A stretch of 33,175 bases of DNA, from contig CAYUUB010000002.1 of NCBI GenBank assembly GCA_964447725.1, positions 1-33,175 on the forward strand. The letters are read 5' to 3'. The first letter of the stretch is position 1, and every line of letters starts with the position of its first letter. The notes below the pieces were generated by a model that was not told the DNA's origin, made no database searches, and saw only the letters and a list, made by a program, of their open reading frames with translations. Made by a program: the position numbers and the translations under genes. This document shows positions 217-21,258 of the stretch, piece by piece. Source of the stretch: an uncultured Oscillospiraceae bacterium. GTDB lineage: Bacteria; Bacillota; Clostridia; Christensenellales; CAG-138.

Positions 217-951
217 CTATTTCCTTTCGTCCTCAACGTGTCCATAGGTTTCCACGCACCAGCTCTTTTTGCCGCAACAGGCGCAGGTCAGTTTGCGTGT
301 TTTCGGGGTGTGCCTCGCCCAAAATACCTCTTTTAAAGACGGACGGAACCGTTCGCCACACTCCGGGCAGATATACAGCGTGTTTCTATAGTATATGCGC
401 ATTACGATGACCCCAAAAAGAACGACCAGCGGAATGCACGCGACAAACGGCCACCAAGTGCCGGTAAAAATCCAGTACAGAATCGTTCCCCACTCGATCA
501 GCGTCATTGGAATAGCAAGCAACAGCATGTTGCCGTGCAGCTTTCTCAAATTCTTCTTTTCTTCCATCATGTGTTCCATGTCCGCAATCGACTCTATGGA
601 GAGCAACCGTCCTGTGCTGAGCGTTTCGCGCACGCTGTCGATCGCACGTTTCTGCTCCTGCATCAGCCCGATTTCCTCGTCGATCTGCCGTTCCTGCTCG
701 TCCAGCAGCAAAAGAAGAACGTTTTCCGGACGTTCGCTCCCCAGAATCCCTTTGATGGACTCCAGCGACAGGCCGAGAGACTTGAGCATGCAAATGATTC
801 GCATTGTCTTCAGGTCGCTTTCGGAATACAGTCTGCGCCCGCCTTCCGAGAGCTCAGTCGGTTTTAGCAAATCCTTTGCGTCGTAAAACTGCACCGTACG
901 TACGGATACGCCGCACAGCTTTGCAAGTTCTCCGGTCGTGTAAGCAGCCAT
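217..951 (-). CDS. MerR-family transcriptional regulator with two C-terminal transmembrane helices and a zinc-ribbon-like tail
   Basis: ORF track 217..1005. The preferred start is the ATG at 951 (MAAYTTGELAKLCGVSVRTVQFYD...), with AGGAGG 8 nt upstream. It has a MerR-type HTH (GELAKLCGVSVRTVQFYDAKDLLKP...GGRRLYSESDL) followed by a coiled-coil segment. Two hydrophobic helices follow (LLLAIPMTLIEWGTILYWIF and WWPFVACIPLVVLFGVIVM), then CPECG...CACCG. Confidence 0.85.
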   Translation of the reverse strand: MAAYTTGELAKLCGVSVRTVQFYDAKDLLKPTELSEGGRRLYSESDLKTMRIICMLKSLGLSLESIKGILGSERPENVLLLLLDEQERQIDEEIGLMQEQKRAIDSVRETLSTGRLLSIESIADMEHMMEEKKNLRKLHGNMLLLAIPMTLIEWGTILYWIFTGTWWPFVACIPLVVLFGVIVMRIYYRNTLYICPECGERFRPSLKEVFWARHTPKTRKLTCACCGKKSWCVETYGHVEDERK

Positions 952-985
952 GGATTTCACCTCCTTATGGGCATACCATAACGTA

Positions 986-998
986 TGACGTAGCGTCA
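986..998. promoter_or_regulatory. Inverted repeat TGACG-TAG-CGTCA, candidate MerR operator in its own promoter
   Basis: A 5+3+5 inverted repeat lies 35-47 nt upstream of the MerR ATG (951). On the minus strand it overlaps a TTGTGA -35-like hexamer and sits upstream of TATGGT/TGGTAT -10-like hexamers, the operator-within-spacer layout typical of MerR regulators. The repeat is short, and the promoter hexamers are weak. Confidence 0.3.
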
Positions 999-1199
999 CA
1001 AGCAAGGGGTTTTTCAGGTCGTTTCAAGGTTTTGGTGGTTTTATAGTGTAAATCTGCCGTTCAACCCGTTCGTGCCGGAAGCATCGACCATTCCGATGCT
1101 GCTTTGCGGGGGACAGTTGCCGAACTTTTAACGTTGACTTTACGCGTTTGTGACGGCACGGCGATATGATAAAACCGAAAAGATGAAAGGAGGGACTAC

Positions 1200-1886
1200 A
1201 TGAAATCAGCTTCACACCACGCAATGGGGCATCTGCTGCACCGGACGCTGGAGGAGGCGGGCATCCATCTGGACAAAGAAATGTTCGTTCTGGGAAACCT
1301 GCTGCCGGACTATTTGCCGGAGCTTATCCTTTCCCCGCACTTTACCGCAAAGTGCCAGCGGGAAATCAACGTGTTTGCCGGCGTTCTCGCCGCACAGCAT
1401 ATCGACCGCGCGAAAGAAATCCCTGCGGAATACGCACTTCGCCTCGGCATCCTGTGCCATTATATCACGGATTATTTCTGCTTTGCGCACTGCCGCGAAT
1501 TTGGAAAAACGCTGGCGAAACACGCGGTATACGAGCAGGAACTCGACGACTATTTCCGCAGCCATTACCATGCCGGCGAATGCCTGCTTGCCGAATATCC
1601 AAGCGTACAGTGCGCTTGCGCAAAGGACGTCGTGTCGGACATCTTTCAGACGAAGCGTCGCTATCAGTCGGCCGAGCGGGCGTTCAAAACGGACTTGCAG
1701 TTCGCGTTTACGACATGTCTGAACACAATCCGGCGGATCTTGGTTCTTTCGGAATCCGGCCAGCACGCGTTCAGTCCTGGTTTCCGCTTTGCGCCGTTCG
1801 CCGTGGAAAAGTATGCGTTTCAAAAGGACGTTTGCAAGCGCAGGATCGTTCCGCGCCGCGCCTGGTGCACCGGTTCGGTCGCCTAG
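1200..1886 (+). CDS. Zinc-dependent phospholipase C-like family protein (hypothetical)
   Basis: 228-aa ORF with AAAGGAGGG 7 nt upstream of the ATG. Histidine/aspartate motifs are spaced as in the Zn-dependent PLC fold (HHAMGHLLH near the N-terminus, GNLLPDY, CHYITDYFCFAH). The assignment is from motif memory only. The basic C-terminal tail (after about aa 190) looks less protein-like. Confidence 0.55.
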   Translation: MKSASHHAMGHLLHRTLEEAGIHLDKEMFVLGNLLPDYLPELILSPHFTAKCQREINVFAGVLAAQHIDRAKEIPAEYALRLGILCHYITDYFCFAHCREFGKTLAKHAVYEQELDDYFRSHYHAGECLLAEYPSVQCACAKDVVSDIFQTKRRYQSAERAFKTDLQFAFTTCLNTIRRILVLSESGQHAFSPGFRFAPFAVEKYAFQKDVCKRRIVPRRAWCTGSVA

Positions 1887-2039: not shown

Positions 2040-3212
2040 TTAAAGTTGAATTTCGCCCGCGCCGTCGCCTGCGTCGGACTGGTAAAACGAAGGCGCATAA
2101 CCCGTCCGTTTTTCATACTCCGCCGCGAGCCGCTTTTTAAACGCGGCAATTTTTGATTTTTCCACGATGCTGATGTTGCAGCCGCCGAACCCGCCGCCGG
2201 TCATGCGCGAACCGATGACGCCTTCGATGCCCGTCGCGATGTCGAACACCGCATCCAGTTCCGGCCCGGTCGCTTCGTAGTCGTCACGGATGGATACGTT
2301 CGCTTCGCACAACAGTTTGCCGAACGCAGCGATATCGCCCGCTTCGAGCGCTTTCAGCGAGGCGATCGTCCTTGCTTCTTCCGTTACGCAGTGCCGTGCG
2401 CGGCGGTAGAGCGTTTCGTTCGTGAAAAACTGCCGGAACGTCTCAAGTTCATCCGCTTTTATCGAGCAGAGATTTTGATAAGCTCCGCCGTTACGGTTGA
2501 TGACGGTCAGCGCCTGTTCGCACTCGCTCCGGCGTTGGTTATACTGCGAATCCGTCAGCTTATGCGGCGCGTTCGTGTTTGTGATGACAATCGTGTATTC
2601 GCCGAGTTCCAGCGGGACATATTGATAGTCCAACGTATTGCAGTCCAAAAAGAGCGCATGATCCTTTTTTGCCATGGCCGAAACGAACTGATCCATGACG
2701 CCGCAGTTCATTCCGACGTATTCGTTTTCCGCCTTCTGGCAAAGCACCGCGATTTCCGCCATGTCGGGTTCGGTCCGTCCGCCGAGCGTTGCCAGCGCAA
2801 CCGCGGTCGCCACCTCAATCGACGCGGACGAAGACAGCCCCGCGCCGAACGGAACCGTTCCGTGATAGAGCAGGTCGCAGCCCGGCACGGCGTAGCCCGC
2901 CTGCTGCAATACGGAAGCAACGCCGCACTGGTAGTTTCCCCAATGCAGCTGTTTATATTGCTCCAGCGCGCTCAAATCCGCTTCCACCCTGTCCGGCAGG
3001 TCTGTCGCGGCAAGACGCATCGTCTGCGTCCCGTTTGCGCGCGCAACAACGGTATTGTTCATGTCCAGCGCCGCGGGGAACACATGCCCGCCGTTATAAT
3101 CGATGTGCTCGCCGATAAGGTTGATACGTCCGGGCGCCTGAAACAGGCGAATGCCGTCCGTCGTTCCGCCGTAAAGCGTCATGAATTCAGAAACCAACTC
3201 TTGATTCGTCAT
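2040..3212 (-). CDS. galK: Galactokinase
   Basis: Galactokinase signature GRINLIGEHIDYNGGHVFP and GHMP-kinase motif PFGAGLSSSASIEVA are present. ORF track gives 2040..3233. I prefer the ATG at 3212 (MTNQELV...) because GGAG lies 6 nt upstream, but 3233 cannot be excluded. Confidence 0.95.
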   Translation of the reverse strand: MTNQELVSEFMTLYGGTTDGIRLFQAPGRINLIGEHIDYNGGHVFPAALDMNNTVVARANGTQTMRLAATDLPDRVEADLSALEQYKQLHWGNYQCGVASVLQQAGYAVPGCDLLYHGTVPFGAGLSSSASIEVATAVALATLGGRTEPDMAEIAVLCQKAENEYVGMNCGVMDQFVSAMAKKDHALFLDCNTLDYQYVPLELGEYTIVITNTNAPHKLTDSQYNQRRSECEQALTVINRNGGAYQNLCSIKADELETFRQFFTNETLYRRARHCVTEEARTIASLKALEAGDIAAFGKLLCEANVSIRDDYEATGPELDAVFDIATGIEGVIGSRMTGGGFGGCNISIVEKSKIAAFKKRLAAEYEKRTGYAPSFYQSDAGDGAGEIQL

Positions 3213-3373
3213 CTTTTTCTCCACAATCGTCATGATATTATTTCAGCGAGTTCAGCGGAAAGCACCGTTGAAAGCACAGCGCTTCCACCGGATGCAAAAC
3301 AGGGCATCCCCTTTCCCCGGCCGGACCGCAGCAAGAATATTTTATCACGGTTTTGCCGTCATAGGGAGGCGCT

Positions 3374-3401
3374 TTGGCAAAATTACACGTGTTTTTGCCA
3401 A
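3374..3401. promoter_or_regulatory. 28-bp palindrome upstream of galK (candidate operator)
   Basis: TTGGCAAAA-ttACACGTGT-TTTTGCCAA has 9-bp perfect arms separated by 10 nt, and the spacer itself contains the palindrome ACACGTGT. It lies about 160 nt upstream of the galK start, just upstream of a minus-strand extended -10 (TGATAAAAT, plus-strand 3339-3347). No cognate regulator gene is visible in the window. Confidence 0.3.
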
Positions 3402-3497
3402 AAGCCGTGCCAATCGGGAACCGGCGCTATGTTTCGGTCGGCCCGAACCGTTCTGAAATTACCGGGAACAAACGGATTCCTTCTGTCGTTGCGGCAG

Positions 3498-3528
3498 AAA
3501 GCGCCTCCGTTTCCGGCGGAGGCGCTTT
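3498..3528 (-). terminator. Candidate terminator of the five-gene operon
   Basis: A 12-bp stem AAAGCGCCTCCG / CGGAGGCGCTTT with a 7-nt loop lies 47 nt downstream of the stop at 3575. The U-tract on the minus strand is short (UUUCUG), hence the moderate confidence. Confidence 0.5.
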
Positions 3529-3574
3529 GTTACATTCCGCGGCAATCGATCAAACGATTAGCCGTCCGTTTTCG

Positions 3575-5074
3575 TCAGTCGCCTTCGCATGTGTTTCGAA
3601 TCATCTTTCCGTCTTTCTCAACATGGTAAAACGCTTCCCGATGCGACAGCTCGGTAAATTTCAGTATCTGGTATCCCTGTTTTTCACCGTTTCTATCTTC
3701 AATTTTGTAAAATTCCGCCCAGTTTCTACGGCGCGCATTCGCATCGTTGAACGAAGGAACAAGATAAGCGGTGGCGCTTGAGCCCTGTCTCCAGATCGCG
3801 GCATAAATCGAAGTATCGGCCTGCGCCTTTTTAAAAGCCGGCTTTCTGTCTTCCGTCGGGTCCAGCAGCGCGTACTCGAAGCCTGCTTTTTTTATCTTTT
3901 CCTGCCATAGATCGTTGGCGACGATATCCGACAACTGGTTGACAAGGTCCAGCGCGCTTTGGTAGTTTTCTTTCCTGATTCGCTCTTCTTTAAGTCGTTC
4001 CTCTTCTTGTTTTTTCTTAAGCTGCTCTTCTTTAAGCCGTTCCTCTTCACGTCGCTTTTTCTTAAGCTGCTCTTCGTTCGGCGGCTCGGGTTCAGAGCCT
4101 TTCGGCTTTCTGTTCGATTTTTCGTCCGTATCCCCTTTTGTTTGCAGCGGAATACGGTCCGGACGGACGGCGGTCCCGTTCCCGTTCGCGTTATCAAGGC
4201 GAATCAGCAAAATCGGGGACTCCTCCGGACTTTCAAAGCGCACTGTCGTTGTGAGATTTACTTCGGTCGGTGCCTTTGCGCGATCCGCTTCTTCGGGGAT
4301 TTGTTTCAGCTTTTCGCTCGCTTTCGCACCCGCTGTTCTATGCTCGAAAATAAGCCAAACGAAGCAGGCTATGAGCAGCGTTGCAAAAACGCATGCGACA
4401 ATCAGGACGATAAGCATCGGGGCGTCCAGCACCGGCTCCCTGTTCGCCAAAGCGGCTTCGTCCTCCGCGGTTTCCGTTACAGTGTCCTTTGCCTGCAGTT
4501 CCGCCGTTAGCAAATCGATCTTTGTCTGCAACGCTTCGGTCTTTCCTTCGAGCATGGCGACTTCTTCCACGCGGTCCGTGTCGGTTTGTATCAGCGCGTC
4601 GATAACGGCGCCGGAGTCGATCCAGCCGGTTTCTGCAAATGTTGAATCCGCGTCCTGATCGCCGGACGTTTCATTTTCTGATTCGTCCAGGGTAGCGCTA
4701 TCTGTTTCAACTGATTCGTCAGCATTTTCTATGCTTGTTTCCGGCTCGCCGGCGGTCCAAACGATTTTTACTTCACATTTGCCGGTCAAGCCGGCCTGCC
4801 CTTCCTCTGCATTTTGGTCCACCGCCGACCTCTGTAGAAACACGTGGGCAGTATTTTCAACGCCGTCTTCACCGCTTTGGTAAGAAACGTATTCTCCCGG
4901 TTCGCCGGGGGATAATCGTCCGATTTCTTCGCCGGAAGCATCGTAAACCGCCGTCGTCTCGCAAACGAAGATTTCGACGCCGTCCTCCGAGTCTTCCGCG
5001 GCATACGCCGTTTGGCAAAAGCCAAGCAGCAGCAGCGCGGCGATCAGCAGCGCGATTTTTCTGTGCATCTTCAT
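3575..5074 (-). CDS. Bitopic (type I) membrane protein: signal peptide, acidic ectodomain, one TM helix, K/E-rich repeat, C-terminal globular domain; function unknown
   Basis: 499-aa ORF whose ATG overlaps the upstream stop (ATGA at 5071-5074). Signal peptide MKMHRKIALLIAALLLLGFCQTAYA|AED. The D/E/T-rich region aa 26-215 includes a coiled-coil-like stretch VEEVAMLEGKTEALQTKIDLLTAELQAKD. TM helix PMLIVLIVACVFATLLIACFVWLIF spans aa 219-243 (nt 4346-4420). The repeat EEQLKKKRREEERLKEEQLKKKQEEERLKEERIRKE spans aa 334-367. The roughly 130-aa C-terminal domain has no motif I recognise. Confidence 0.8.
   Translation of the reverse strand: MKMHRKIALLIAALLLLGFCQTAYAAEDSEDGVEIFVCETTAVYDASGEEIGRLSPGEPGEYVSYQSGEDGVENTAHVFLQRSAVDQNAEEGQAGLTGKCEVKIVWTAGEPETSIENADESVETDSATLDESENETSGDQDADSTFAETGWIDSGAVIDALIQTDTDRVEEVAMLEGKTEALQTKIDLLTAELQAKDTVTETAEDEAALANREPVLDAPMLIVLIVACVFATLLIACFVWLIFEHRTAGAKASEKLKQIPEEADRAKAPTEVNLTTTVRFESPEESPILLIRLDNANGNGTAVRPDRIPLQTKGDTDEKSNRKPKGSEPEPPNEEQLKKKRREEERLKEEQLKKKQEEERLKEERIRKENYQSALDLVNQLSDIVANDLWQEKIKKAGFEYALLDPTEDRKPAFKKAQADTSIYAAIWRQGSSATAYLVPSFNDANARRRNWAEFYKIEDRNGEKQGYQILKFTELSHREAFYHVEKDGKMIRNTCEGD
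3974..4075 (-). repeat. Imperfect 42-45-nt in-frame tandem repeat encoding the K/E-rich segment
   Basis: On the plus strand, CTCTTCTTTAAG(T/C)CGTTCCTCTTC occurs at 3983-4006 and 4025-4048. TTTTTCTTAAGCTGCTCTTC occurs at 4011-4030 and 4056-4075. The repeat is coding (EEERLKEEQLKKK x2), not a CRISPR or intergenic repeat. Confidence 0.85.
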
Positions 5075-8000
5075 GTTTTTGCCCTCCCCCGGCTGCCTGC
5101 CGTTGTGCAGGCAAGGTAGTATTGGCTCAATGCATCGACCGCACCAATAAGAAACGCGTCTCCGTCGTCAATGTGACCTTTCAGTACTTCCCGATCGTAT
5201 TGATGCCTGCCCGGTTTGTCAAATATTCCGGCTGAGTATTCGCCTTGTTTGAATGTCCAGTCAAAACACTCGCTTGCGGCCGTTTTATAAGCTTCTAGCA
5301 GTTCATTGAATTCTTTTCGACCGGCTTCGACCACCTTTTCATGCGCCGCATTACGCGTTTTATTACCGGTGGCCGCCTCTGCTGCCGAATCGGTTCCCGC
5401 CGCCGTGCCGAAACGTACTTGCGAGGAGGTGGAGCGCTTGCCATCGCCAAATATCGCCGGCCTTCCTTTGAGCGAACCACTGGCGACTTCCAGCTTAGGG
5501 TCTTTTGAAAACTCGCATTCAAAATCCTCCGGAGCAATGGCTGCATGCATTCCCGCCAGGAACAGCCGGTAAACGAATTCCGTCTTGCTTTCTTCGTCGC
5601 GGTGGATCCAATGAATCATTTTTGAACCGTTGCCAGCAAGGATGACAGAAGCGCTGTCTTTTGAAATCTCTTTTTCGTCCCTTAACATAAGGCCTGCACA
5701 AAAGATGATCGACGCCAGATAAAATGCGACCCTTTTTTTCAGCTCCAGCAGCGCACCGGCTCCATTTTCGCCGGGGTTTTTCCCCGCGCAATATTTTGCG
5801 TAAGCCTCTCCGAACGTTTTTTCATTGTGAACCTGCGTGTCGATATTTTTGTCTTTCGGGATTTTCATGCCAAGCAAATCTTCGATACTGCTTTCGCCGT
5901 TTCCGTCCTGGCTTTTGCAAATATCATTGATAAATCCATCGACGTCGTAATACATTTCTTTGATGCTGTCTTCCGCATTATTAACAAGTATCTTAAGCTT
6001 GGCCGCATTGTTATCCCGCAGGCCTTCCAGCAAAATTTTCCGTGCGCCGAAGCGTATCGAACTCGAATAACAATGCGATATTCCATCGTTCACCGCGTCG
6101 ATAAAGATATCCGCGGAGCCGCCGCCGATATCGATTACGCAATACGTAACCTGTCTGGTCACTGCGCTGGCTGCATACCGGAAAGCCGCCTCGCTTTCGG
6201 TTATTTCAATTATGCTGCCCACCGTCTGGTCTGTATTGTCTTCTGCATTAATGCTGCCCATCGCCTGGTCTATATTGTCTTCTGCATTATCCGGCCGGTG
6301 TATTGCAAGGCCCGTGTTTTGGATTACCCTGTTCAGCGCAGCGCCCAGGGACGTGAAATAGCCATCCACAGCCTGCCTTTTAAACGACAGCGGGTAGGAC
6401 GCCGTCAACGACAGCTCGCTGCAATTGTTGCATTTCGCTTCCAGTGCGATCATGTACAACAGTTGCATCAGCATTGCTTCCACGCGCTTTTGGTTGTTGT
6501 CGCCGCTTTGGCACCACTTTAAATTCGGATATAATTTAGGCTGTGCAAAACTCTTTCGACGCCCCAAAAACGCCCGGTAAAATATCCAGCTGTCGAATAA
6601 CGGTTGCCGAGCAATATTCGTGGCGGCCGCATCCGCTAAAATCGACTGCAGCGGAACGCTTTTTGCGATTTCTTTTGCAAGTTCCTCTTTCGCAGGAATG
6701 TCCCTGTAACTCGGCAGGTCGCTCTCCCTGTCCGACAAGGTTTCCATAATTTCCTTTGCGGTAAGCGGCATTGCGGGAACAAAGTATTTCACAAAATACG
6801 GCGTATCCGTCTTGCTGTCAATCCTTGGATTGAGCAGCGGCATGCTCCAGAAATTGAGCCCGCTGATCAATGTTTCTTTCGTTTCCCCCCTGACTCTGCC
6901 AAACAATGTCGTTGAGGACGTGCCGAAATCCAGGGCCGCCTCGTAGATGCGCGGATTGTTTGCGGTCCCAATCAAAGCCGATTTTCTCGTTGTGACATAA
7001 CCCAGTAAAGCATTATTATAGTAAAGTTTGCAACGCTCCGGCATTTGCTTGAGCATGTAGTACGTCAGCTGCGTTTTCCCTCCATCTTGGTGATCTTTCC
7101 CCGGTTCTTCCTTTTTTGAGGCTTCGCTTGTTTTTTCAGCTGTCTTTTTATCTTCATGTTCCGGTTCTATTTGATATCCCTGCCGATTGATGATCTGCTC
7201 TTCATCTTCAGGCGTTAATCGATAATGGCTGCTTTCGACGCAGAACATGAAGTATTTCGACCATCCGTCGATCCGCTGTCTCGGCCAGATGCCCGCCGTG
7301 CAGAAATCGTACCATGTCGCAAACTCTATCGCAGGTTTTTCATATAGACGCGAGAAAACGATATTTCCGATTGTTACAGTCGCCTCGATTTTTGAAAGCT
7401 TAATATCCTCGCCGCACGGAGTAATTTTGACTTCGTATTTTGGTTCCAGTTCCGCGTTCTCGTCCCACAGCTTCCAGAACATCTCCGTAACCGGCATTGG
7501 TATGAAAAAGTGTACGTATTTTTCCTTTCTTTCGAGGGCCTTCAGGCACTCGTCTCCCAAACCGCCGGCGGCTTTATGGATGTCCGTAAGCCTGTCGTAA
7601 CGCGCTCCCTGCTCGATTATCGCGTAATGCACCGTATCGGAAAACAGCTTGAATGTCTTCGGCACCGGGACCCGCCAAATCTGAAGCTCTCCATTCTTGT
7701 GTCCCTTTACAACGTCGTCTATATTCGGGGTTGTCGCGGTCTCCAGTTTATATGCACTATTCAAAGCATAGGAATAGTCCTGGATCAACCGTTCTTTCAG
7801 CAAGCCGTTATGGGATGTTTTTTGGTCATAGGCGTCAAGCCATCGTTTCAGCACCAACGCATGGATTTGCCATATGGCGGGAATTTCCCGATCTTTTGCA
7901 ACCTTTATCATTCCCGGCGTATAGACGGGTTTCGCATCCTTTGCTGCCCCGAGATCGGCGGCCTCCACATTTTCGACAAGGGCGTGGACCTTCCCACCTT

Positions 8001-8538
8001 TGAGCCAGGGAATCTTGTCCGGATAAACTTTCTGGAGTTTTTCCCAGGCATCCTTTGTCGGGACGATATGCACCGTGGGCGACGACATGGCGATCGGATG
8101 TTGACCATCGACGTCTTCGATGTAATAGATATCCATGCTGTTCCATCTGTCCGCCTTCGGTCTGGTCTTGTACGCCGCGCTGATGTACGGGTTGACCGCC
8201 TCTTTCGTAAAGTCGATTGTTTCCCTACGGACTTTTACATCGTAGGCGTCGGCAAGCAGTAAAACGGCGAGCATGGCGCGCCATTCCCGGACGACGATTT
8301 CTTCATATTCTATGTAACTATTGTCCTGATCGGCGTTCGTAAGCAACATATCAAAGAGCTGATGCTGGCTCCAGATGTCCGGCACAGAGGCGATGCGCCT
8401 CAGATCATGCTGTTTGATTCTGTCCTTATCTTTCGGGTCGACGATGCGGATGGCCTTGCCGATCTCTTTTATTTCCTCTCTTTTCCCCGTCAGTTCGCTG
8501 CTGGTCGGATGAAACGGAAACCAATGATAATACTCCAT
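5071..8538 (-). CDS. Giant (1155 aa) protein: roughly 450-aa N-terminal module of unknown fold, K/E-rich linker, C-terminal actin/Hsp70-like (ASKHA) ATPase core
   Basis: The ORF starts 3 nt after the upstream stop, with GGGAGGGA inside the last codons of the upstream gene. Phosphate-1-like AALDFGTSSTT is at aa 534-544 (nt 6907-6939). Phosphate-2-like CVIDIGGGSADI is at aa 800-811 (nt 6106-6141). Adenosine-like VILAGNGSKM is at aa 965-974 (nt 5617-5646). Their order and spacing match Hsp70/MreB/ParM/FtsA-type ATPases. The linker EPEHEDKKTAEKTSEASKKEEPGKDHQDGGK lies at about aa 458-488. Confidence 0.85.
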   Translation of the reverse strand: MEYYHWFPFHPTSSELTGKREEIKEIGKAIRIVDPKDKDRIKQHDLRRIASVPDIWSQHQLFDMLLTNADQDNSYIEYEEIVVREWRAMLAVLLLADAYDVKVRRETIDFTKEAVNPYISAAYKTRPKADRWNSMDIYYIEDVDGQHPIAMSSPTVHIVPTKDAWEKLQKVYPDKIPWLKGGKVHALVENVEAADLGAAKDAKPVYTPGMIKVAKDREIPAIWQIHALVLKRWLDAYDQKTSHNGLLKERLIQDYSYALNSAYKLETATTPNIDDVVKGHKNGELQIWRVPVPKTFKLFSDTVHYAIIEQGARYDRLTDIHKAAGGLGDECLKALERKEKYVHFFIPMPVTEMFWKLWDENAELEPKYEVKITPCGEDIKLSKIEATVTIGNIVFSRLYEKPAIEFATWYDFCTAGIWPRQRIDGWSKYFMFCVESSHYRLTPEDEEQIINRQGYQIEPEHEDKKTAEKTSEASKKEEPGKDHQDGGKTQLTYYMLKQMPERCKLYYNNALLGYVTTRKSALIGTANNPRIYEAALDFGTSSTTLFGRVRGETKETLISGLNFWSMPLLNPRIDSKTDTPYFVKYFVPAMPLTAKEIMETLSDRESDLPSYRDIPAKEELAKEIAKSVPLQSILADAAATNIARQPLFDSWIFYRAFLGRRKSFAQPKLYPNLKWCQSGDNNQKRVEAMLMQLLYMIALEAKCNNCSELSLTASYPLSFKRQAVDGYFTSLGAALNRVIQNTGLAIHRPDNAEDNIDQAMGSINAEDNTDQTVGSIIEITESEAAFRYAASAVTRQVTYCVIDIGGGSADIFIDAVNDGISHCYSSSIRFGARKILLEGLRDNNAAKLKILVNNAEDSIKEMYYDVDGFINDICKSQDGNGESSIEDLLGMKIPKDKNIDTQVHNEKTFGEAYAKYCAGKNPGENGAGALLELKKRVAFYLASIIFCAGLMLRDEKEISKDSASVILAGNGSKMIHWIHRDEESKTEFVYRLFLAGMHAAIAPEDFECEFSKDPKLEVASGSLKGRPAIFGDGKRSTSSQVRFGTAAGTDSAAEAATGNKTRNAAHEKVVEAGRKEFNELLEAYKTAASECFDWTFKQGEYSAGIFDKPGRHQYDREVLKGHIDDGDAFLIGAVDALSQYYLACTTAGSRGRAKT
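6212..6289 (-). repeat. Two tandem 39-bp units (36/39 identical), in frame, inside the ATPase gene
   Basis: Plus strand: ATGCTGCCCACCGTCTGGTCTGTATTGTCTTCTGCATTA at 6212-6250 and ATGCTGCCCATCGCCTGGTCTATATTGTCTTCTGCATTA at 6251-6289. They encode NAEDNIDQAMGSI / NAEDNTDQTVGSI at aa 751-776, between the connect region and the phosphate-2 motif. Confidence 0.9.
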
Positions 8539-8541
8539 CTT

Positions 8542-10143
8542 TTATCCCTCCCTGTTCGTTTCAACCGAGTCTTTGGAAACGCAACACTCCATCAGCGATG
8601 AAACGAAGTAATTTGCCGGATTGTGCTCGCCGATCTTCATGGAATTCATGGAAGCCGTAATTTCCGCTCCGGGAATGCCACAAAGCGTAAATGCAGCCGT
8701 CCCGTCGCTCGCCTGCCGCGAAATCGATTTTTCTATCGGCATTCCGTCGTTTCGCCCGCTGCCCTCGATCTCCAGCAATTCGTGCATCCCATGGTGGTCG
8801 AGCTCTTCCAGCCAGCGGAACATACTCGACGCAAAGGCCTTTGGAACGGCTACCCCGCGCTGGGTCTCTTCGTATATTTTTTTGAGGTCATCCGTCTTCC
8901 CCCAAACGGCCCGAAACGCTTCCGGCCTGTACCGCCAGGAAAGCTTCTCCTGCGATGCGATCGATTGATAATACACATTCAGCATCAGGTAAAACCGCTC
9001 CAGCCGCAGGATATAGTCTTTGACGCCCGTCTTGCTTTTGGCCTGCCCATAAGCGCCGAAATAATCGAAACTCTTCAGTGGGAAATATCCGTTTGACGGA
9101 ACGGTCCCATCCGTGTCTGTTCTTGTTTTGAGCGGGACCGACACTTCGATGTTTTTCGGATAGTCTCCCGCAAAATAGCGGCAAACGCCGATCGCAGCCA
9201 TCAATTCGGCAGGCATGGACGGATTGTCCTGTCCTTCCTTGGCCTTGCGTTTGCCGTCCGTTTCGACTTTCTCCCAGACGGAATCCCCTTCCTTATCCGT
9301 TTTCTTCTTTTGCATCTCCTGGCAAAAATCGCCGACAAACTGCGTATATTCGACCCCGTTCAGCGCGTCGGACTCCTTATAATACTTGAGCGCCATCTTG
9401 CTGTTGATCGGGAACAGCGAGCTGTCAACCTCCGTATCGAGATCGATGTTGAAATAAGGCAGCATAAGCGTCAGCCCGATGTGTTCGGCGTAATGGGTCA
9501 GATCCCCGTCTTCTTCTTTTTTGCAGGCTTCCTGATACAACCTTGCAAGCGTCGGCGTTCCGCTTGCTCCCGTTCCGCCGAATACAGAGCCGGCAAACAT
9601 TACCCTCAGTTCGTCGTTTCTTCCAACGCCGCTGAAAATGCTGTGCCAGAAGCCGCTTTCATTTCCCCAGTCGTCATGGAAGTTCTTCGCCCAGAGCAAC
9701 GAGCCGATCCTCGGATTGCCCTTACACCCGCGCTGCAGTTCCATAATCCGATCGTTCGTGTCGTACAGCGCATGGAACGTAAGTTTTTCCTCTTCCTCGG
9801 ACGATCCGGGCGTAACGATCAAGTCGAGCGTGCTATTGTCTTTCGTCCCAACGGAAAATTCGGCGAACCTGTCGACCTTCTTTGCTTTCCAGTTTCTTTT
9901 GCGCAGGCCGTCGTCAACCGCAACCGACAAAAACGGCATGGCCGCGTTCAGGCTCTTTATCATTTCCTCAAGCTCGTCCTTGTCGCCGCCTTTTACGATA
10001 TCCAGATCGACCATCCGGATTTCCAGCCGGTAATCGTCTCCGCAAAGGTCCGTCAGCATGCCGGACGCCGCCAGCGCGACGACCGATTGTGCCACACGCA
10101 TGCCGGACCCGCCGATTGCAACCAATACAAACTTTTTTGCCAT
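8542..10143 (-). CDS. Divergent tubulin/FtsZ-superfamily GTPase (Tubulin_2 / FtsZ-like type) with long C-terminal extension
   Basis: 533-aa ORF with GGGAGG 6 nt upstream of the ATG. T1-like VAIGGSGMR is at aa 8-16 (nt 10096-10122). T3-like GCKGNPRIG is at aa 139-147 (nt 9703-9729; compare FtsZ GAGGNPEIG). The T4 signature FGGTGASGTP includes GGTGASG at aa 189-195 (nt 9559-9579; compare GGGTGSG). Codons were checked by hand against the plus strand. I recognise no motif after about aa 330. Confidence 0.85.
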   Translation of the reverse strand: MAKKFVLVAIGGSGMRVAQSVVALAASGMLTDLCGDDYRLEIRMVDLDIVKGGDKDELEEMIKSLNAAMPFLSVAVDDGLRKRNWKAKKVDRFAEFSVGTKDNSTLDLIVTPGSSEEEEKLTFHALYDTNDRIMELQRGCKGNPRIGSLLWAKNFHDDWGNESGFWHSIFSGVGRNDELRVMFAGSVFGGTGASGTPTLARLYQEACKKEEDGDLTHYAEHIGLTLMLPYFNIDLDTEVDSSLFPINSKMALKYYKESDALNGVEYTQFVGDFCQEMQKKKTDKEGDSVWEKVETDGKRKAKEGQDNPSMPAELMAAIGVCRYFAGDYPKNIEVSVPLKTRTDTDGTVPSNGYFPLKSFDYFGAYGQAKSKTGVKDYILRLERFYLMLNVYYQSIASQEKLSWRYRPEAFRAVWGKTDDLKKIYEETQRGVAVPKAFASSMFRWLEELDHHGMHELLEIEGSGRNDGMPIEKSISRQASDGTAAFTLCGIPGAEITASMNSMKIGEHNPANYFVSSLMECCVSKDSVETNREG

Positions 10144-10167
10144 ATCCTGCCTCCCTCGTTACTCCCG

Positions 10168-10719
10168 TCAGTTTTTGATCGTTTTCAGTTTATCGTCCCA
10201 TTTTGCCACGATCCTGCTCCGCAGCGGTACGTTCGTCGCCGGGACATAGTGCATGCACAAGATCCAAATAATCGCACCGCATATTGCCAGCATGAGGTAC
10301 GGCAATCCCGCTCTGAATATGATCCAAAGACTTTCCGGAATATAGTTTCCAATCAGATTTTCGGACACAATTCCATATCGTGCGCCGGCCAATGCGCCGA
10401 TTCCAGCGCAAATCAGCAAGAAATTGCTCCAATTTTGCAAGGAAAGCCGCCCGTGCAGTTTTCGACCTGTATCGCCTTTCTTTTCGTTGACAATAAAAAA
10501 GATCAGGTTGGCGGCAAGCAATGCCATAATGCCGGCAAAATGCGCCCAGTATAGCGAGTTCTGATATGCCTGTGCAACTCGCTGCGAAGCATCGTCCAGA
10601 TAAAAAGCCACCAACACGGGCGTCTTTATCAAAAGCTGCGGAACCAGCGCAAGCAGAAGAGCCGCCGCCACCATTACCGTTATTCGAATTCCAATCCTTT
10701 TTTTTCTTAACGTATCCAT
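10168..10719 (-). CDS. Small polytopic membrane protein (about 4 TM helices), function unknown
   Basis: ORF track 10168..10734 starts at a TTG. I prefer the ATG at 10719 (MDTLRKKRIG...), which has GGGAGG 6 nt upstream. Hydrophobic helices lie at about aa 13-31, 57-77, 97-118 and 130-155 of the shorter form, followed by a basic amphipathic C-terminal tail (RSRIVAKWDDKLKTIKN). Confidence 0.75.
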   Translation of the reverse strand: MDTLRKKRIGIRITVMVAAALLLALVPQLLIKTPVLVAFYLDDASQRVAQAYQNSLYWAHFAGIMALLAANLIFFIVNEKKGDTGRKLHGRLSLQNWSNFLLICAGIGALAGARYGIVSENLIGNYIPESLWIIFRAGLPYLMLAICGAIIWILCMHYVPATNVPLRSRIVAKWDDKLKTIKN

Positions 10720-10753
10720 TGCCAGCCTCCCCAAAATTTATCTCGCCTGTACT

Positions 10754-12556
10754 TTACTGTTGTTCGCCTGTGGATTCCGGATGTTTCAGCGAGAGCGCAT
10801 CCTCGCGGCTGAACGCCCAGCCGTTAAAGTCCTCGTCTTCCTTCCAGTTGCCGGACGGCACGTATATTGCCGGGATATCGCGCACGACGATTCCAAACAC
10901 GGTCGTCTGCACACACGCGTACGTTCCTTCCTCGATTGCGTCCAGGGCAATCTGCGTCTGTTTGTCGGCAATGCCGCTTGCAATCAGGCTCGACAAAAAC
11001 GGCGTCTTTGCGGTTGTCGCCGACGTAAACCGTGCGGACGTACCGCTTTCTTCGCGGATGTACTCTTTGGTAAACTCCTTTAGGTTCAAAGTCCATGCGC
11101 TTGGCCAGCTTGTCTGATAAAGCGCCGCAATCTCATCCCACTGCGGGGATATCCACGTTCGGACGTCCACGGAAAACAGCAGAGGCACGTCTTCCGGGAG
11201 CATATCGGTATTGAGCGAAAAGATAATATCGACGCTTCCGGTTCTCGTATTGATTTGCTTGCTTTCGCACCGTATGATCGATTGATCCGCTTCGACCCAT
11301 TCGGATGTTTTCGTCGCCCCGTCCTTTTCTTCGTAGTTCAGCATCGAGACAACGGGTTCAACGGAATAGTCGGCGGCGGCAAACTCGATTTCATCGGCCG
11401 CGGCCAGCAGACCGTGTTTGTAATAGGCGGCCTCGCCTCCGTTGGACGAATCGGTCAGCGTGTACGGAAGCGTACACTTCACTTCCACGTTGTTTTCGTT
11501 TTCGCCGCGCACATCGGTATATATCTTTAAAACGGGGACGCTTTCCAAAAGCTCGATATCCTCTTCGGACAAATTTGTCGATGCGGGATACAAAATCTCG
11601 TCGTCATCGTTTGGAAGACCGCGAACTAGGTATCCGATATCGTAGTCCGCCGCGTCATACGCCTGGATTCCGGTATGGAACGATATCGAAATATCGTCGT
11701 TTTCACGCTGCCGCACACCGTATTCGGAATAGTAGGCGGCATACACCGGGTTGCTCTCGTCCAGCATCCCGCTGTTTTCAAGGTCGGACAGGGCTTTCTC
11801 CATGCTTTTTAGCACGCACGCGTCGTTTCCCATAAACAGAATGTATATAGGGTGGCGAAAGATCTCGTTTTCGTCTTTGTCCGCAACCATATAGGCGCTG
11901 ATGCTTCTTGCTTTGCCCGTCAGCGAATTAATCGGCAGATTGTCAACGGTTCCTGAAAAATCGCCCAGCACGCCGATGATGCCGACCGTCGTATCGTCCG
12001 GTTCCAAAAACGTTTTCTGTATCGTTTCAGCCGTACGCAGGCAGATATCTTCGGCCGGCATCATCAAATCCGAGATAAAAATGCAGACCGATCCGGGATT
12101 TTCGGAATAAAAATCGGCGATCCCGTCGACAACGTCGGCAATGCTGTTGCTGTCCTCCCGAAAAAACTCTTTCGTATGCGCCGAAAGGAAAAAATCGTCG
12201 CTCGCAGCAGCGCCACGACGTGCATCCCCGGCAATATCGCCGGCGGTATAGCAACTGCGCGCGCTGTTCATGGAAGCGCTCATGACCGCGGAGAGTACGG
12301 CGCTGTACGTTGTGCAGTATTCCGAAACGAACCCCTTCATTCCCTGACCGTCGTCGATCACGATGCAATAGCTCGTATCGCCGGACGTTCCGGCTTCGGT
12401 TTCCACCGCGTGCGGCTTCAGTTTTTCCAGCGCTGAAAGCAGCTGCCGCGTCGGATTCATGATTCCAGCCGGTTCCTCAGGTTCTGCAGCTCCGCATGCC
12501 GTCAATCCAAGCAAAAGCAGCAGGCAGCACGCAACACACAACACTCGTTTTTTCAT
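10754..12556 (-). CDS. Secreted lipoprotein (600 aa) with N-terminal degenerate vWA-like domain; function unknown
   Basis: ORF track 10754..12577. The preferred start is the ATG at 12556 (MKKRVLCVACCLLLLLGLTAC|GAAEP), with AAAGGGG upstream. The lipobox LTAC has its Cys at residue 21. The strand-like motifs are YCIVIDDGQGM (aa 63-73, DxGxG in place of MIDAS DxSxS), SVCIFISDLMMP and TVGIIGVLGDF. Their spacing resembles vWA beta1, beta4 and beta5. The remainder is acidic and beta-rich with no recognised motifs. Confidence 0.8.
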   Translation of the reverse strand: MKKRVLCVACCLLLLLGLTACGAAEPEEPAGIMNPTRQLLSALEKLKPHAVETEAGTSGDTSYCIVIDDGQGMKGFVSEYCTTYSAVLSAVMSASMNSARSCYTAGDIAGDARRGAAASDDFFLSAHTKEFFREDSNSIADVVDGIADFYSENPGSVCIFISDLMMPAEDICLRTAETIQKTFLEPDDTTVGIIGVLGDFSGTVDNLPINSLTGKARSISAYMVADKDENEIFRHPIYILFMGNDACVLKSMEKALSDLENSGMLDESNPVYAAYYSEYGVRQRENDDISISFHTGIQAYDAADYDIGYLVRGLPNDDDEILYPASTNLSEEDIELLESVPVLKIYTDVRGENENNVEVKCTLPYTLTDSSNGGEAAYYKHGLLAAADEIEFAAADYSVEPVVSMLNYEEKDGATKTSEWVEADQSIIRCESKQINTRTGSVDIIFSLNTDMLPEDVPLLFSVDVRTWISPQWDEIAALYQTSWPSAWTLNLKEFTKEYIREESGTSARFTSATTAKTPFLSSLIASGIADKQTQIALDAIEEGTYACVQTTVFGIVVRDIPAIYVPSGNWKEDEDFNGWAFSREDALSLKHPESTGEQQ

Positions 12557-12667
12557 GTTTCCCCTTTCGTTCCGCAAAGCAGGCGAAATACCCGCCGTAT
12601 TGCCGGTATGGCCGTATGATCGATCGAATTTCAGGATATGTTTGGCGAAAAGTATTAAATTTTATTT

Positions 12668-15821: not shown

Positions 15822-16764
15822 TGTTTTTATCGACGGAAAAGAGGGCACGACCGGTCTAAGGATCTTCGACCGGCTTTCGGACAGAACCGATATCGAGCTG
15901 ATAACGCTCCCCGAGGCAAGGCGCAAGGACGCAAAGAGCCGCGCCGTCGCATTGAACAACTGCGATATCGCGATCCTCTGCCTGCCGGACGCCGCCGCAA
16001 GGGAAGCCGTCTCCCTGATCGAAAACGGACACGTCCGCGTCATCGACGCTTCCACCGCGCACAGGACGGCGCCCGGCTGGGTATACGGTTTCCCCGAATT
16101 GCAGGCCAACGGCTTCCGGAACGTCCAGTCGGCCACGCGCGTCTCCGTTCCCGGATGCCACGCGAGCGGTTTCCTCGCGCTGATTGCGCCGCTTGTGCAA
16201 AACGGCATCCTGAAAAAAGACGCGCTGATCTCCTGCACGTCCCTGACCGGGTACAGCGGCGGCGGACGCAGGATGATCGCCCACTATGAAGCCGACTACC
16301 GGGACGTCCAGTTGAAAGCACCGCGGTTGTACGCGCTCGGGCAGGCGCACAAGCATCTGCCGGAAATGCAGCATTACAGCGATCTGGACACGGCTCCGGC
16401 GTTTCTGCCGATCGTCGCGGACTACCTCTGCGGCATGCTGACGATAATCCCGGTGTTTTCCGCCCAGCTGACGCCGGGAAAGACCGCCGGCGATATAAAA
16501 AGCGTTTATCAGGCGCTCTACGGCGGCCCGCTGATGCAATACCGGGAGCAGATGGACGAAAACGGCTATCTCTCCGGCGGGCGGCTTTCCGGCCTTGACG
16601 GCATGGACGTCAGCGTATCAGGGAACGACGAACGCATCACGCTGCTGGCCCGCTTTGACAATCTCGGTAAAGGCGCGTCCGGCGCGGCAATCGAGTGTTT
16701 GAATATCATGATCGGAGCGAACCCCTACGAAGGGCTCAATCTTGGAAAGGAATCGGAACTTTGA
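15814..16764 (+). CDS. argC: N-acetyl-gamma-glutamyl-phosphate reductase (short form)
   Basis: 316 aa with GKEGTTGLRI nucleotide-binding N-terminus and the catalytic-Cys motif VSVPGCHASG. It overlaps the argH stop by 8 nt. Confidence 0.94.
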   Translation: MYNVFIDGKEGTTGLRIFDRLSDRTDIELITLPEARRKDAKSRAVALNNCDIAILCLPDAAAREAVSLIENGHVRVIDASTAHRTAPGWVYGFPELQANGFRNVQSATRVSVPGCHASGFLALIAPLVQNGILKKDALISCTSLTGYSGGGRRMIAHYEADYRDVQLKAPRLYALGQAHKHLPEMQHYSDLDTAPAFLPIVADYLCGMLTIIPVFSAQLTPGKTAGDIKSVYQALYGGPLMQYREQMDENGYLSGGRLSGLDGMDVSVSGNDERITLLARFDNLGKGASGAAIECLNIMIGANPYEGLNLGKESEL

Positions 16765-17972
16765 AACAGATAGAAGGCGGCGTATGCGCCGCAGCCGGCT
16801 TTACCGCCGCGGGCGTATATTGCGGCATCCGGAAAAATAAAACCAAAAAAGACCTCGCGCTGATTGCAAGCGAAAAACGCGCGGCCTGCGCCTGCGTCTA
16901 TACGCAAAACCTCGTAAAAGGCGCGCCAATCGCCGTTACGAAGCGGAACGTCGCCGACGGATACGCCAGCGCGATCATCTGCAACAGCGGCAACGCCAAC
17001 ACCTGCAACGCAAACGGCGTTGAAATCGCGGAAACGATGTGCGATTTGCTCGGCAAAGCGCTCGGCATTCCGGCTTTCGACGTGGTCGTCGCGTCCACCG
17101 GAGTCATCGGAAAACCGCTCAGTATCGAACCGATCGCTGGCGGTATCCCGTCGCTTATTGAAAGCCTTGGCGACGACAGCGACGGCGCGGCACGCGCCAT
17201 CATGACCACGGACGTAAAGAAAAAGGAAATCGCGGTCGAATTTTCAGTCGGCGGGACAACCTGCAAAATCGGCGGCATCGCCAAGGGCAGCGGCATGATT
17301 CAGCCGAATATGGCGACCATGCTCGGTTTTATCACGACCGACGCCGCAATCAACCCAGCCATGCTGCAAAAAGCGCTCAGTTCCGACGTCCCGGAGAGTT
17401 TCAACATGGTCAGCATCGACGGCGACACCTCGACCAACGATATGGTGACCATCCTCGCAAACGGCATGGCAGGCAACGAAGAAATCGCCGAGGCGGGCGC
17501 GGACTTCGATTCGTTCTGCGCCGCGCTCGGCATGGTCACGCAGTATCTGAGCCGTGCCATCGCGGGCGACGGCGAAGGCGCAAGCAAGCTGCTCATATGC
17601 GCCGTTTCCGGAGCGGCCGGCAAGGGCGACGCAAAGAAGCTGGCAAAGAGCGTCATCAACTCCCCGCTGGTCAAGTGCGCCATGTTCGGCGCGGACGCAA
17701 ACTGGGGCCGCGTCCTCTGCGCGCTCGGTTACGCGGGCGTCGCCGTGGATGTGAACAAGGTCGGCGTCCGTTTTTCGTCGGCGGCAGGCGAAATCGAAGT
17801 CTGCAAAAACGGCATGGGCGTGGACTTTTCGGAGGAACTGGCGAAGGCCGTGCTTTCGGAGAGCGAAATCACCATCGCCGTCACGCTTGGCGACGGGGAT
17901 GCGTCGGCCACCGCGTTCGGCTGCGACCTGACCTATGATTACGTCAAGATCAACGGAGACTACCGGACATGA
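16761..17972 (+). CDS. argJ: Bifunctional glutamate N-acetyltransferase / amino-acid acetyltransferase
   Basis: Autoproteolysis motif PNMATMLGFITTDA. ORF track starts at 16695. I prefer the TTG at 16761 (LKQIEGGVCAAAGF...), which overlaps the argC stop (TTGA) and has GGAAAGG 10 nt upstream. Confidence 0.92.
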   Translation: MKQIEGGVCAAAGFTAAGVYCGIRKNKTKKDLALIASEKRAACACVYTQNLVKGAPIAVTKRNVADGYASAIICNSGNANTCNANGVEIAETMCDLLGKALGIPAFDVVVASTGVIGKPLSIEPIAGGIPSLIESLGDDSDGAARAIMTTDVKKKEIAVEFSVGGTTCKIGGIAKGSGMIQPNMATMLGFITTDAAINPAMLQKALSSDVPESFNMVSIDGDTSTNDMVTILANGMAGNEEIAEAGADFDSFCAALGMVTQYLSRAIAGDGEGASKLLICAVSGAAGKGDAKKLAKSVINSPLVKCAMFGADANWGRVLCALGYAGVAVDVNKVGVRFSSAAGEIEVCKNGMGVDFSEELAKAVLSESEITIAVTLGDGDASATAFGCDLTYDYVKINGDYRT

Positions 17973-18823: not shown

Positions 18824-18847
18824 CGCAGCCGCAAGGAGGGCAATCTT

Positions 18848-21018: not shown

Positions 21019-21041
21019 CGCGTTTTCGCACAGCATCGAAC

Positions 21042-21075
21042 AAAAAACGGGAAATCGTGCGATTTCCCGTTTTTT
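21042..21075. terminator. Bidirectional rho-independent terminator (argF and the convergent small gene)
   Basis: An 11-bp stem AACGGGAAATC-GTGC-GATTTCCCGTT spans 21046-21071. It is flanked by an A-run on the left and TTTTTT on the right. Confidence 0.85.
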
Positions 21076-21087
21076 GTCCGTCTTTCG

Positions 21088-21258
21088 TTACATTCCTTTT
21101 ACGATGTTTCCAAGCAAAAGCAACACATAACCGATCAGTACAATAAAGGCGCTCAGGAGCTGCCCGATCGGCAGCGCGCCGAACACGCCCAGCATGCCGA
21201 TGACAAAGACGATAACGGAAATCCAGAATACGACCTTTTTCGGTGCATTTAGCCTCAT
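21088..21258 (-). CDS. Small (56 aa) two-helix membrane protein, not in the ORF track (<60 aa)
   Basis: Hand translation gives MRLNAPKKVVFWISVIVFVIGMLGVFGALPIGQLLSAFIVLIGYVLLLLGNIVKGM*. GGAGG lies 8 nt upstream of the ATG at 21258, and the TAA stop is at 21088-21090, immediately before the bidirectional terminator. Confidence 0.6.
   Translation of the reverse strand: MRLNAPKKVVFWISVIVFVIGMLGVFGALPIGQLLSAFIVLIGYVLLLLGNIVKGM

Follow-up and report, generated by a model that had tools for sequence, protein, structure and literature searches.

In a 33,175-nt stretch of contig CAYUUB010000002.1 from an uncultured Oscillospiraceae bacterium (assembly GCA_964447725.1; hereafter the window), we identify a five-gene cassette, A-B-C-D-E, whose fourth gene encodes a giant ATPase-like protein. 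Gene D (5071–8538, minus strand) is an open reading frame of 1155 aa without a transmembrane segment, and its predicted product is a cytoplasmic protein that carries an ASKHA (actin/Hsp70-like) ATPase. As modelled, the C-terminal half of D is a genuine ASKHA nucleotide-binding domain (NBD) of two RNase-H-like lobes, and from its sequence relationships D is the founder of a large and distinct ASKHA family of ~1000–1350 aa that is absent from the Pfam and NCBIfam models. Taken together, we hold these statements on fold and family with high confidence. The most interesting part is the pairing of D with gene C, a diverged tubulin-like GTPase, and this pairing holds across phyla. We propose that D would serve as an ATP-driven adaptor for C at the membrane, and we put the probability of this best explanation, ASKHA family and adaptor role taken jointly, at roughly 0.6. 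What is new is a giant ASKHA family that has no model as yet and is linked to tubulins of FtsZl1 type; the kind of fold is already known.

Architecture and motifs of gene D

D begins with a conserved N-terminal module (aa 1–299; 7642–8538, minus strand, as for all parts of D below) that has many invariant residues and the motifs SVPDIWSQH and EWRAMLA, both of which are also present in a relative of 20% identity. It continues through a β-rich middle region (aa 300–527; 6958–7641), mostly strands, to the ASKHA ATPase core (aa 528–1045; 5404–6957), which is supported by the predicted structure and its Foldseek matches in the PDB. In the model, the C-terminal extension (aa 1046–1155; 5074–5403) consists of one short strand followed by helices. 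Because ~527 aa precede the core and ~110 aa trail it, D is not a plain MreB, ParM, FtsA or DnaK, in agreement with a sequence-only reading of the window that preceded this analysis.

That reading had noted three ASKHA motifs in D, and all three are found at exactly the coordinates and in the order it gave. Phosphate-1, AALDFGTSSTT (aa 534–544, with D537; 6907–6939), is conserved and aligns to the phosphate-1 motifs of MreB and BeeR; phosphate-2, CVIDIGGGSADI (aa 800–811, with D803, G805–807, S808 and D810; 6106–6141), is conserved and supported by alignment to DnaK; and the adenosine motif, VILAGNGSKM (aa 965–974, with G969–K973; 5617–5646), is likewise conserved. To these we add a fourth signature, the connect-1 helix ITESEAAFRYA (aa 779–789, with E781; 6172–6204), which lies directly before phosphate-2, is conserved, and is aligned by hhalign to E. 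coli DnaK, MreB and FtsA. As a sequence pattern, the motif set is far beyond chance.

The motif residues are those that the family retains, the opposite of the outcome that the sequence-only reading had named as one that would refute an ASKHA core. Invariant in 39 close homologues are D537, G539, T540, S541, E781–A784, D803, G805–S808, D810 and G969–K973, and the key positions D537, G539, E781, D803, G805, D810 and G969 are also invariant in 41 distant relatives that are 18–27% identical. The family consensus reads DFGTSST, TESxAAAxYF, IDIGGGTSDI and AGNGSK. Between phosphate-1 and phosphate-2 lies an NLKW motif (6514–6525) with a near-invariant lysine, K674, that is present in 40 of the 41 distant relatives; K1015 is present in all 41. 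From this conservation we infer K674 to be a candidate catalytic lysine.

Gaps of 255 aa from phosphate-1 to phosphate-2 and 153 aa from phosphate-2 to the adenosine motif, described earlier as large insertions, are correct as lengths; as insertions they are modest when set against the corresponding family medians of 214 and 166 aa (the phosphate-1 to phosphate-2 spacing of the window copy is 266 aa). The longer spacing of the window copy is due in part to a 39-bp tandem duplication (6212–6289; two copies, 92% match), which encodes NAEDNIDQAMGSI/NAEDNTDQTVGSI in the loop just before connect-1 and coincides with a low-confidence stretch of the structure models. Motif spacing in the D family is near that of Hsp70.

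Predicted fold and profile relationships

A first AlphaFold model, of full-length D from an alignment of 39 close homologues, had a mean predicted local distance difference test score (pLDDT) of 67.9, with aa 1–35 below 50, the N-terminal module beyond aa 60 at 65–90 and the β-rich middle region at 75–92. In Foldseek searches with this model, the N-terminal module had no significant structural neighbour and the middle region gave just weak immunoglobulin-like matches (E≥0.007), while the weak PDB matches of the model as a whole included Hsp70, BeeR and sugar-kinase chains. Because this model was too weak, a second was built for aa 500–1155 from an alignment of 60 sequences, distant relatives among them. 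This second model has a pLDDT of 81.5 and a predicted template modelling score of 0.88, with strands and helices in the order expected for ASKHA lobes. Both the two-lobe fold, in the model, and the four ordered and conserved motifs are present in D.

Against the PDB, the second model gave 262 Foldseek matches at E≤1e-3. The best 50 of these are all Hsp70 NBDs, BeeR or MreB, each with probability 1.00, and the first 13 are Hsp70 NBDs; E values are 1e-8 for DnaK, 1e-7 for mortalin, 5e-7 for BeeR and 2e-6 for MreB, and Hsc70 and BiP are also matched. Profile searches at the sequence level point the same way once the family is sampled broadly. D alone and a close-family profile found nothing significant among PDB sequences; a profile of the diverse family matched BeeR (0.0015), MreB (0.002), FtsA (0.004) and mortalin (0.011), with phosphate-1 and phosphate-2 in order, and nearly all of the 50 PDB chains at E≤1 are ASKHA proteins, the sole exceptions being non-significant BROX chains. 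The placement of an ASKHA core in the C-terminal half of D is thus borne out by motif conservation, by almost purely ASKHA profile matches and by a confident fold match.

When the D profile was aligned by hhalign with E. coli proteins, probabilities were 92% for MreB, 89% for FtsA and 78% for DnaK. In the DnaK alignment, E781 pairs with E171, D803 with D194, G805–807 with G196–198, S808 with T199 and D810 with D201; of the DnaK partners, E171, D194, T199 and D201 are what we take to be active-site residues of Hsp70. Diverse members of the family also give weak matches to the Pfam models Ppx-GppA, MreB_Mbl, SrfB, FtsA and Alp7A_C and, in NCBIfam, to MreB, BeeR, MamK, FtsA and EutJ among others; all of these are ASKHA families, and the one exception is a stray NCBIfam match in a single member.

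These matches invite the reading that D forms filaments of its own, as an actin-like cytomotive protein of the MreB, ParM, BeeR or MamK type that polymerises on ATP alongside tubulin-like filaments, instead of serving as a switch or adaptor that does not polymerise. The best sequence-profile matches of D are indeed to the filament formers BeeR, MreB, FtsA and MamK, BeeR and MreB are among its significant fold matches, and one distant relative barely passes the MreB_Mbl threshold (27.4 against 27 bits, over 44 residues). Yet the sequence matches are confined to the universal phosphate-1, connect-1 and phosphate-2 regions and are therefore uninformative on polymerisation interfaces, the 13 best fold matches are Hsp70 NBDs rather than filament formers, and the core of D is embedded between ~527 aa of N-terminal domains and a C-terminal extension; we know of no actin-like filament former with such extra domains around its core. 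We consider filament formation by D unlikely.

A large family outside existing models

A search of a large protein database returned 39 homologue clusters of D, all full-length and 35–42% identical, with no Pfam domain and no meaningful name. One of these close homologues (P0002) is named "cytochrome c-type biogenesis protein CcmE" by JGI, apparently in error, as the family shows no resemblance to CcmE. The full extent of the family emerged from an exhaustive search of 1.84 billion representatives with the D profile, which yielded 973 proteins at E≤1e-3, the majority of them 1000–1350 aa long; 378 proteins reach E≤1e-10. The family is distinct, and not SrfB, since the thresholds for SrfB, HSP70, MreB, FtsA and Ppx-GppA all failed.

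Membership in the Hsp70 family (PF00012) was rejected: there was no match at E≤1 in the window protein or in 25 homologues, no Hsp70 model appears among the NCBIfam matches of window D or of the diverse members, and the model of D shows no C-terminal β-sandwich substrate-binding domain with a helical lid behind the core. MreB-, FtsA- or ParM-type membership was likewise set aside, as window D has no family-model match and the distant relatives match weakly. Tested in this way against the Hsp70, MreB, FtsA and ParM-type models named in the sequence-only reading, D reaches none of the thresholds.

Membership in Ppx/GppA also failed: the match lies below the 27-bit cut-off, covers a partial domain, and is sub-threshold in all 25 homologues. 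A related possibility is that D acts enzymatically on small molecules or polyphosphate, in the manner of Ppx/GppA or the sugar kinases, with a tubulin-like neighbour that is unrelated to its chemistry. Ppx-GppA (PF02541) is the sole Pfam family matched by 25 of 25 close homologues, around phosphate-2 (best E 5.9e-05), and it is matched by window D too; an exopolyphosphatase chain is among the weak PDB sequence-profile matches, and NagK/ROK kinases are among the weak fold matches of the first model. All these Pfam matches are, however, sub-threshold and limited to ~65 residues around phosphate-2 (aa 776–843 alone in window D), and Hsp70 or actin-like proteins account for all of the best 50 fold matches of the confident model. 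A metabolic enzyme would, moreover, not be expected to be coupled so strictly with a tubulin-like GTPase and membrane proteins, and we regard this explanation as improbable.

The suggestion that D is an SrfB-type protein, and so belongs to a "virulence factor" family, was tested with the Pfam model PF07520 (cut-off 27.1 bits) and did not hold: neither window D nor any of 25 close homologues has a match at E≤1. SrfB is similar in overall size, at ~1000 residues (its profile has 992 positions), and weak local profile similarity exists in a few distant relatives, with sub-threshold matches in 2 of 41 (best E 0.0056) and, in one further relative, a match at E 0.23 and 9.8 bits over a 70-residue stretch (profile positions 539–601). 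These scores are nevertheless far under the cut-off, and the operon partners and host organisms differ. The neighbours of D are a Tubulin_2 GTPase and membrane proteins rather than an srfA/srfC-type operon; none of the four cassette neighbours reaches the threshold of any Pfam family, and hence there is no srfA/srfC-like neighbour. Membership in SrfB is very improbable. A very remote relation between D and SrfB may exist at the level of a shared fold; the paper on the SrfABC toxin offers no information on fold.

Pairing with a tubulin-like GTPase

Gene C (8542–10143, minus strand), which encodes 533 aa with GGSG and GGTGASG loops, is by sequence homology a diverged Tubulin_2 (FtsZl1-type) GTPase. 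The PF13809 score of the window copy, 13.2 bits, is below threshold; phmmer links this protein, with E down to 1e-19, to many proteins that carry PF13809, and of 30 aligned homologues 23 match Tubulin_2 (best 4.6e-14) and 7 match the Tubulin/FtsZ GTPase domain. The assignment rests on these homologue matches to PF13809 and PF00091, because hhalign of the C-family profile with E. coli FtsZ was uninformative, aligning the GGTG loop alone at 2.4% probability. Our searches found no C relative with a solved structure.

D lies directly downstream of C with a gap of 3 nt, and its Shine-Dalgarno sequence, GGGAGGG, is inside the 3' end of C, consistent with the translational coupling proposed earlier; from this arrangement, D is probably translationally coupled to C in the window. 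The two genes are adjacent, on the same strand and at most 53 nt apart in 14 of 14 independent loci (the window counted) from at least five phyla, with Clostridia, Alphaproteobacteria, Acidobacteria, Nitrospirae and a cyanobacterial plasmid represented, and local hmmsearch with C- and D-family profiles confirmed both genes in all 14. Besides the window, these comprise the Clostridia-type contigs L001, L002, L004, L006, L008 and L011 and seven further loci, in each of which C is followed by D: a more distant metagenome contig (L012), a short contig that ends inside gene D (L013), a Defluviitaleaceae metagenome-assembled genome (L014), a contig with a protein assigned by NCBI to Phenylobacterium (L015), loci from Acidobacteria (L016) and Nitrospirae (L017), and plasmid1 of Synechococcus sp. 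NIES-970 (L018; AP017960.1, 46678–53508).

Pairwise identities of C and of D correlate closely (r=0.97 over 78 locus pairs from 13 loci), and we therefore conclude that the two genes are inherited as a unit. Adjacency at 14 of 14 loci, combined with this co-varying divergence, strongly supports the functional pairing of D with its tubulin-like neighbour that the sequence-only reading had suggested.

On the Synechococcus plasmid, the pair is preceded by genes of 476 aa and 169 aa, and every gene is annotated "unknown protein". A plasmid of Picosynechococcus sp. PCC 7003 was also matched, indicating a plasmid-borne pair in marine cyanobacteria. A genome scan with the pattern [IV]DIGGG[TS][ST]D returned at least one locus, and the pattern proved too generic for a census.

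The five-gene cassette and its surroundings

All five genes lie on the minus strand, in the order A-B-C-D-E with intergenic gaps of 19, 24, 3 and -4 nt. Ribosome-binding sites are strong and of GGAGG type for C, D and E, and weaker and purine-rich for A. Gene A (10754–12577; likely true start ATG 12556) encodes a lipoprotein of ~600 aa with the lipobox LTAC, and gene B (10168–10734; likely true start M6, nt 10719) a membrane protein of ~185 aa with four hydrophobic segments. Gene E (3575–5074), whose ATG overlaps the stop codon of D (ATGA), encodes a 499-aa single-pass membrane protein laid out as a signal peptide, an acidic outside part, a transmembrane segment (aa 221–239), a K/E-rich region and a C-terminal domain. 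Membrane prediction thus associates A, B and E with the membrane and finds no transmembrane segment in C or D. A terminator-like hairpin, GCGCCTCCGCCGGAAACGGAGGCGC, followed by TTTCT (3500–3530, minus strand) closes the unit.

The same five-gene order recurs in the Clostridia-type contigs that hold the whole cassette (L001, L002, L004, L006, L008 and L011), with products of ~600, 185, 525, 1100 and 290–500 aa and with differing flanking genes. In more distant cassettes, the A-family lipoprotein is detectable at the second search iteration.

Gene A has no domain recognised by Pfam, by a PDB profile search or by a large-database profile search. A von Willebrand factor A (vWA) domain was considered for it and dropped, as Pfam (A-family proteins from eight loci included) and profile searches gave no support. 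Across phyla, the few invariant residues of the A family are D75, D170, G209, P243 and G250; a hydrophobic stretch that resembles a strand precedes both D75 and D170 (VIDDGQGM and IFISDL), an arrangement that loosely recalls a degenerate vWA/MIDAS site and is unsupported by the tools. In gene E, a 42-bp repeat (3982–4075, minus strand; 2.2 copies, 88% match) encodes the K/E-rich sequence EEQLKKK..EEERLKEE in the cytoplasmic part. As the length of E varies from 288 to 499 aa between genomes, this repeat probably serves as a coiled-coil spacer that differs in length.

The GC content of the cassette (3575–12577) is 0.516, with B and D at 0.49–0.50, against 0.589 for the right flank (12578–33175) and 0.57–0.59 for galK, argG and argH. 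The window cassette sits between galK and an arginine operon, and in other genomes the flanking genes are quite different. Lower GC and differing flanks suggest that the cassette was acquired horizontally.

A further alternative, at the level of the whole system, is that the cassette is mobile and works in conflict or defence, or serves giant surface or toxin proteins, with D as an ATP-dependent sensor or effector; it would then not be housekeeping machinery of the membrane or cytoskeleton. Its patchy distribution over distant phyla, the plasmid copy, the GC contrast and the variable flanks would all fit, as would neighbours that include serine recombinases, GmrSD, a Cap4 nuclease, a DNA methylase, an FRG protein, an RHS-repeat protein and proteins longer than 5000 aa. 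In several genomes and in the window, however, the cassette is flanked by ordinary genes for biosynthesis or ribosomal proteins, and none of the typical effector domains, such as a nuclease or a toxin, can be recognised within it. PADLOC models gave no match in the cassette except a weak and implausible REase_II (E 0.005), tblastn gave no phage match, and a viral structure library returned nothing at E≤1e-3. We judge a conflict role to be unlikely, at much the same level as filament formation by D.

Several of the cassettes do have conspicuous neighbours. Near a distant cassette on L008, the called product at 16518–21563 is 5319 aa long (2283 aa on the parallel contig L009), and the called product at 1–2915 of L012, also near a cassette, is 8662 aa. 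Directly upstream of the tubulin-like gene on L016 lies a 1710-aa RHS-repeat protein (2827–7959), and a protein near the L017 cassette (16360–17548) has a faint TcdB_toxin_midN match and weak FG-GAP matches. The link of cassettes to such very large or toxin-like neighbours could be chance or functional.

Elsewhere in the window, a 415-aa open reading frame (30800–32047, plus strand) appears to fuse an N-terminal shikimate dehydrogenase to a C-terminal shikimate kinase, in a shikimate-pathway cluster with DAHP synthase and EPSP synthase. At the other end, a MerR-family regulator (217–1005, minus strand) is extended at its C-terminus by a hydrophobic region that is rich in cysteine and includes CPECG and CACCG motifs, and it stands beside a zinc-dependent phospholipase-C-like gene on the opposite strand (1200–1886, plus strand).

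Relation to known systems

FtsA-FtsZ and the Hsp70 NBDs each resemble part of this cassette. FtsA is an actin-fold membrane tether and FtsZ a tubulin-fold GTPase, encoded by adjacent genes in the dcw cluster. Here, too, the gene of an ASKHA-fold ATPase adjoins that of a tubulin-superfamily GTPase, with which it is probably co-translated; D and FtsA align in the region of phosphate-2 (hhalign 89%; PDB profile E 0.004), and a complex of C and D would be expected to act at the membrane. In the cassette, however, the two genes stand in the reverse order, D, with ~527 aa of unrelated N-terminal domains, is roughly three times as large as FtsA, and C is Tubulin_2/FtsZl1 and not FtsZ, with no division genes nearby. 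A membrane link of C and D would come from the separate proteins B and E, and the unit includes an external lipoprotein.

Hsp70 NBDs (DnaK, Hsc70, BiP and mortalin) are the best structural matches of D, with E values of 1e-8 to 1e-6; catalytic positions align residue by residue and motif spacing is similar. Unlike Hsp70, D has no PF00012 match at E≤1, lacks the β-sandwich domain and carries a large N-terminal module, and the cassette encodes no DnaJ or GrpE partners.

Makarova and Koonin defined FtsZl1, the Tubulin_2 family of Pfam (PF13809), in 2010 (PMC2875224) and predicted that it belongs, along with vWA proteins, P-loop GTPases, kinases and OmpA-like proteins, to a system that remodels membranes. 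The cassette shares with those operons the same divergent tubulin family and a wealth of membrane-associated proteins that lack known function, and Gram-negative C/D cassettes have TonB_C or OmpA neighbours. In the portion of that study drawn on here, FtsZl1 proteins are mostly ~760–1210 aa, as opposed to ~500 aa for gene C, and most lie beside vWA proteins, P-loop GTPases or kinases. Our operon has the Tubulin_2 GTPase and not the vWA protein that the majority of the described operons include: no vWA domain was found in the cassette proteins by Pfam or by profile searches that included A-family proteins from eight loci. The constant partner here is instead a giant ASKHA protein, and the same portion of the study (PMC2875224) describes no actin/Hsp70-like partner family. 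Two rows in the part of its table considered here are of interest in this respect. Cagg_1315 of Chloroflexus aggregans, a 1083-aa protein with the annotation GrpE, comes immediately after an FtsZl1 gene of 763 aa, and an FtsZl1 operon of Magnetospirillum includes amb2961, a 1626-aa protein with the annotation DnaK. Each of the two may be a relative of gene D that has escaped recognition.

A 2023 survey of FtsZ/tubulin families set the Tubulin_2 group aside. Our literature searches found no description of a tubulin-like/ASKHA cassette or of a defence role for one, and the searchable literature yielded no demonstrated function or defined partner for Tubulin_2/FtsZl1 proteins.

Proposed mechanism

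Judging by its motifs, the ASKHA domain of D is complete, with conservation at every catalytic position, and it is probably catalytically competent. ATP would be held in the cleft between the two RNase-H-like lobes, with D537 of phosphate-1, E781 of connect-1, D803, G805–807, S808 and D810 of phosphate-2 and G969–K973 of the adenosine motif as its likely ligands. Fold, conserved motifs, family size, constant synteny and the predicted topology of the membrane partners are what the analysis shows; binding and hydrolysis of ATP by D, its physical contact with C, its adaptor role and any cellular function are what we infer. Closure of the lobes would be passed on through the extra domains and would reach the tubulin-like partner C and those parts of B and E that face the cytoplasm. 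D would thereby be an ATP-driven conformational switch or adaptor whose nucleotide cycle regulates C assemblies or tethers them at the membrane through B and E, and through the same two proteins the assemblies of C may be coupled to lipoprotein A outside the cell.

Taken by itself, the adaptor mechanism, drawn by analogy with the service of FtsA to FtsZ, is tentative, with odds slightly short of even. Several observations weigh against our proposal as a whole. The full-length model of D is poor exactly at phosphate-2, with pLDDT below 50 over aa 751–807, and finds nothing in the PDB at E≤1e-3 by Foldseek. Even for the second model, TM-scores to known ASKHA domains are 0.4–0.5 (normalised to target length), values that we attribute to the insertions in D, and window D reaches no Pfam or NCBIfam threshold, its best match being Ppx-GppA, whose 16.8 bits fall below the 27-bit cut-off. 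The 14 loci are a small sample gathered through homologues of C or D, so that unpaired members could be missed, and adjacency and co-inheritance do not prove a physical interaction between C and D. The adaptor analogy draws on knowledge of FtsA and FtsZ, with no FtsA-specific feature common to D, and several loci adjoin mobile, defence or toxin-like genes, which would allow a role in conflict.

Beyond the adaptor, the whole cassette might be a previously unrecognised trans-envelope machine, present in several phyla and built on the partnership of a Tubulin_2/FtsZl1 GTPase with a giant ASKHA ATPase; this wider proposal is speculative, less probable than the adaptor mechanism and more so than any of the alternatives above.

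Significance

A widespread subgroup of FtsZl1 GTPases is encoded, at every locus examined, together with a giant ASKHA ATPase that the databases do not recognise, and the two form a concrete and testable pair. With about 1000 representative clusters, the D family deserves a Pfam or NCBIfam model of its own, and Picosynechococcus-type cyanobacteria that carry the pair on plasmids are possibly tractable experimental hosts. Cytoskeletal partnerships of two NTPases, such as FtsZ and FtsA, organise bacterial membranes, and few are known. If the cassette does prove to be a trans-envelope machine, it would be a second, independent prokaryotic pairing of tubulin and actin folds besides FtsZ-FtsA, and it would provide the first mechanistic handle on the FtsZl1 proteins, which have been without an assigned function since 2010.

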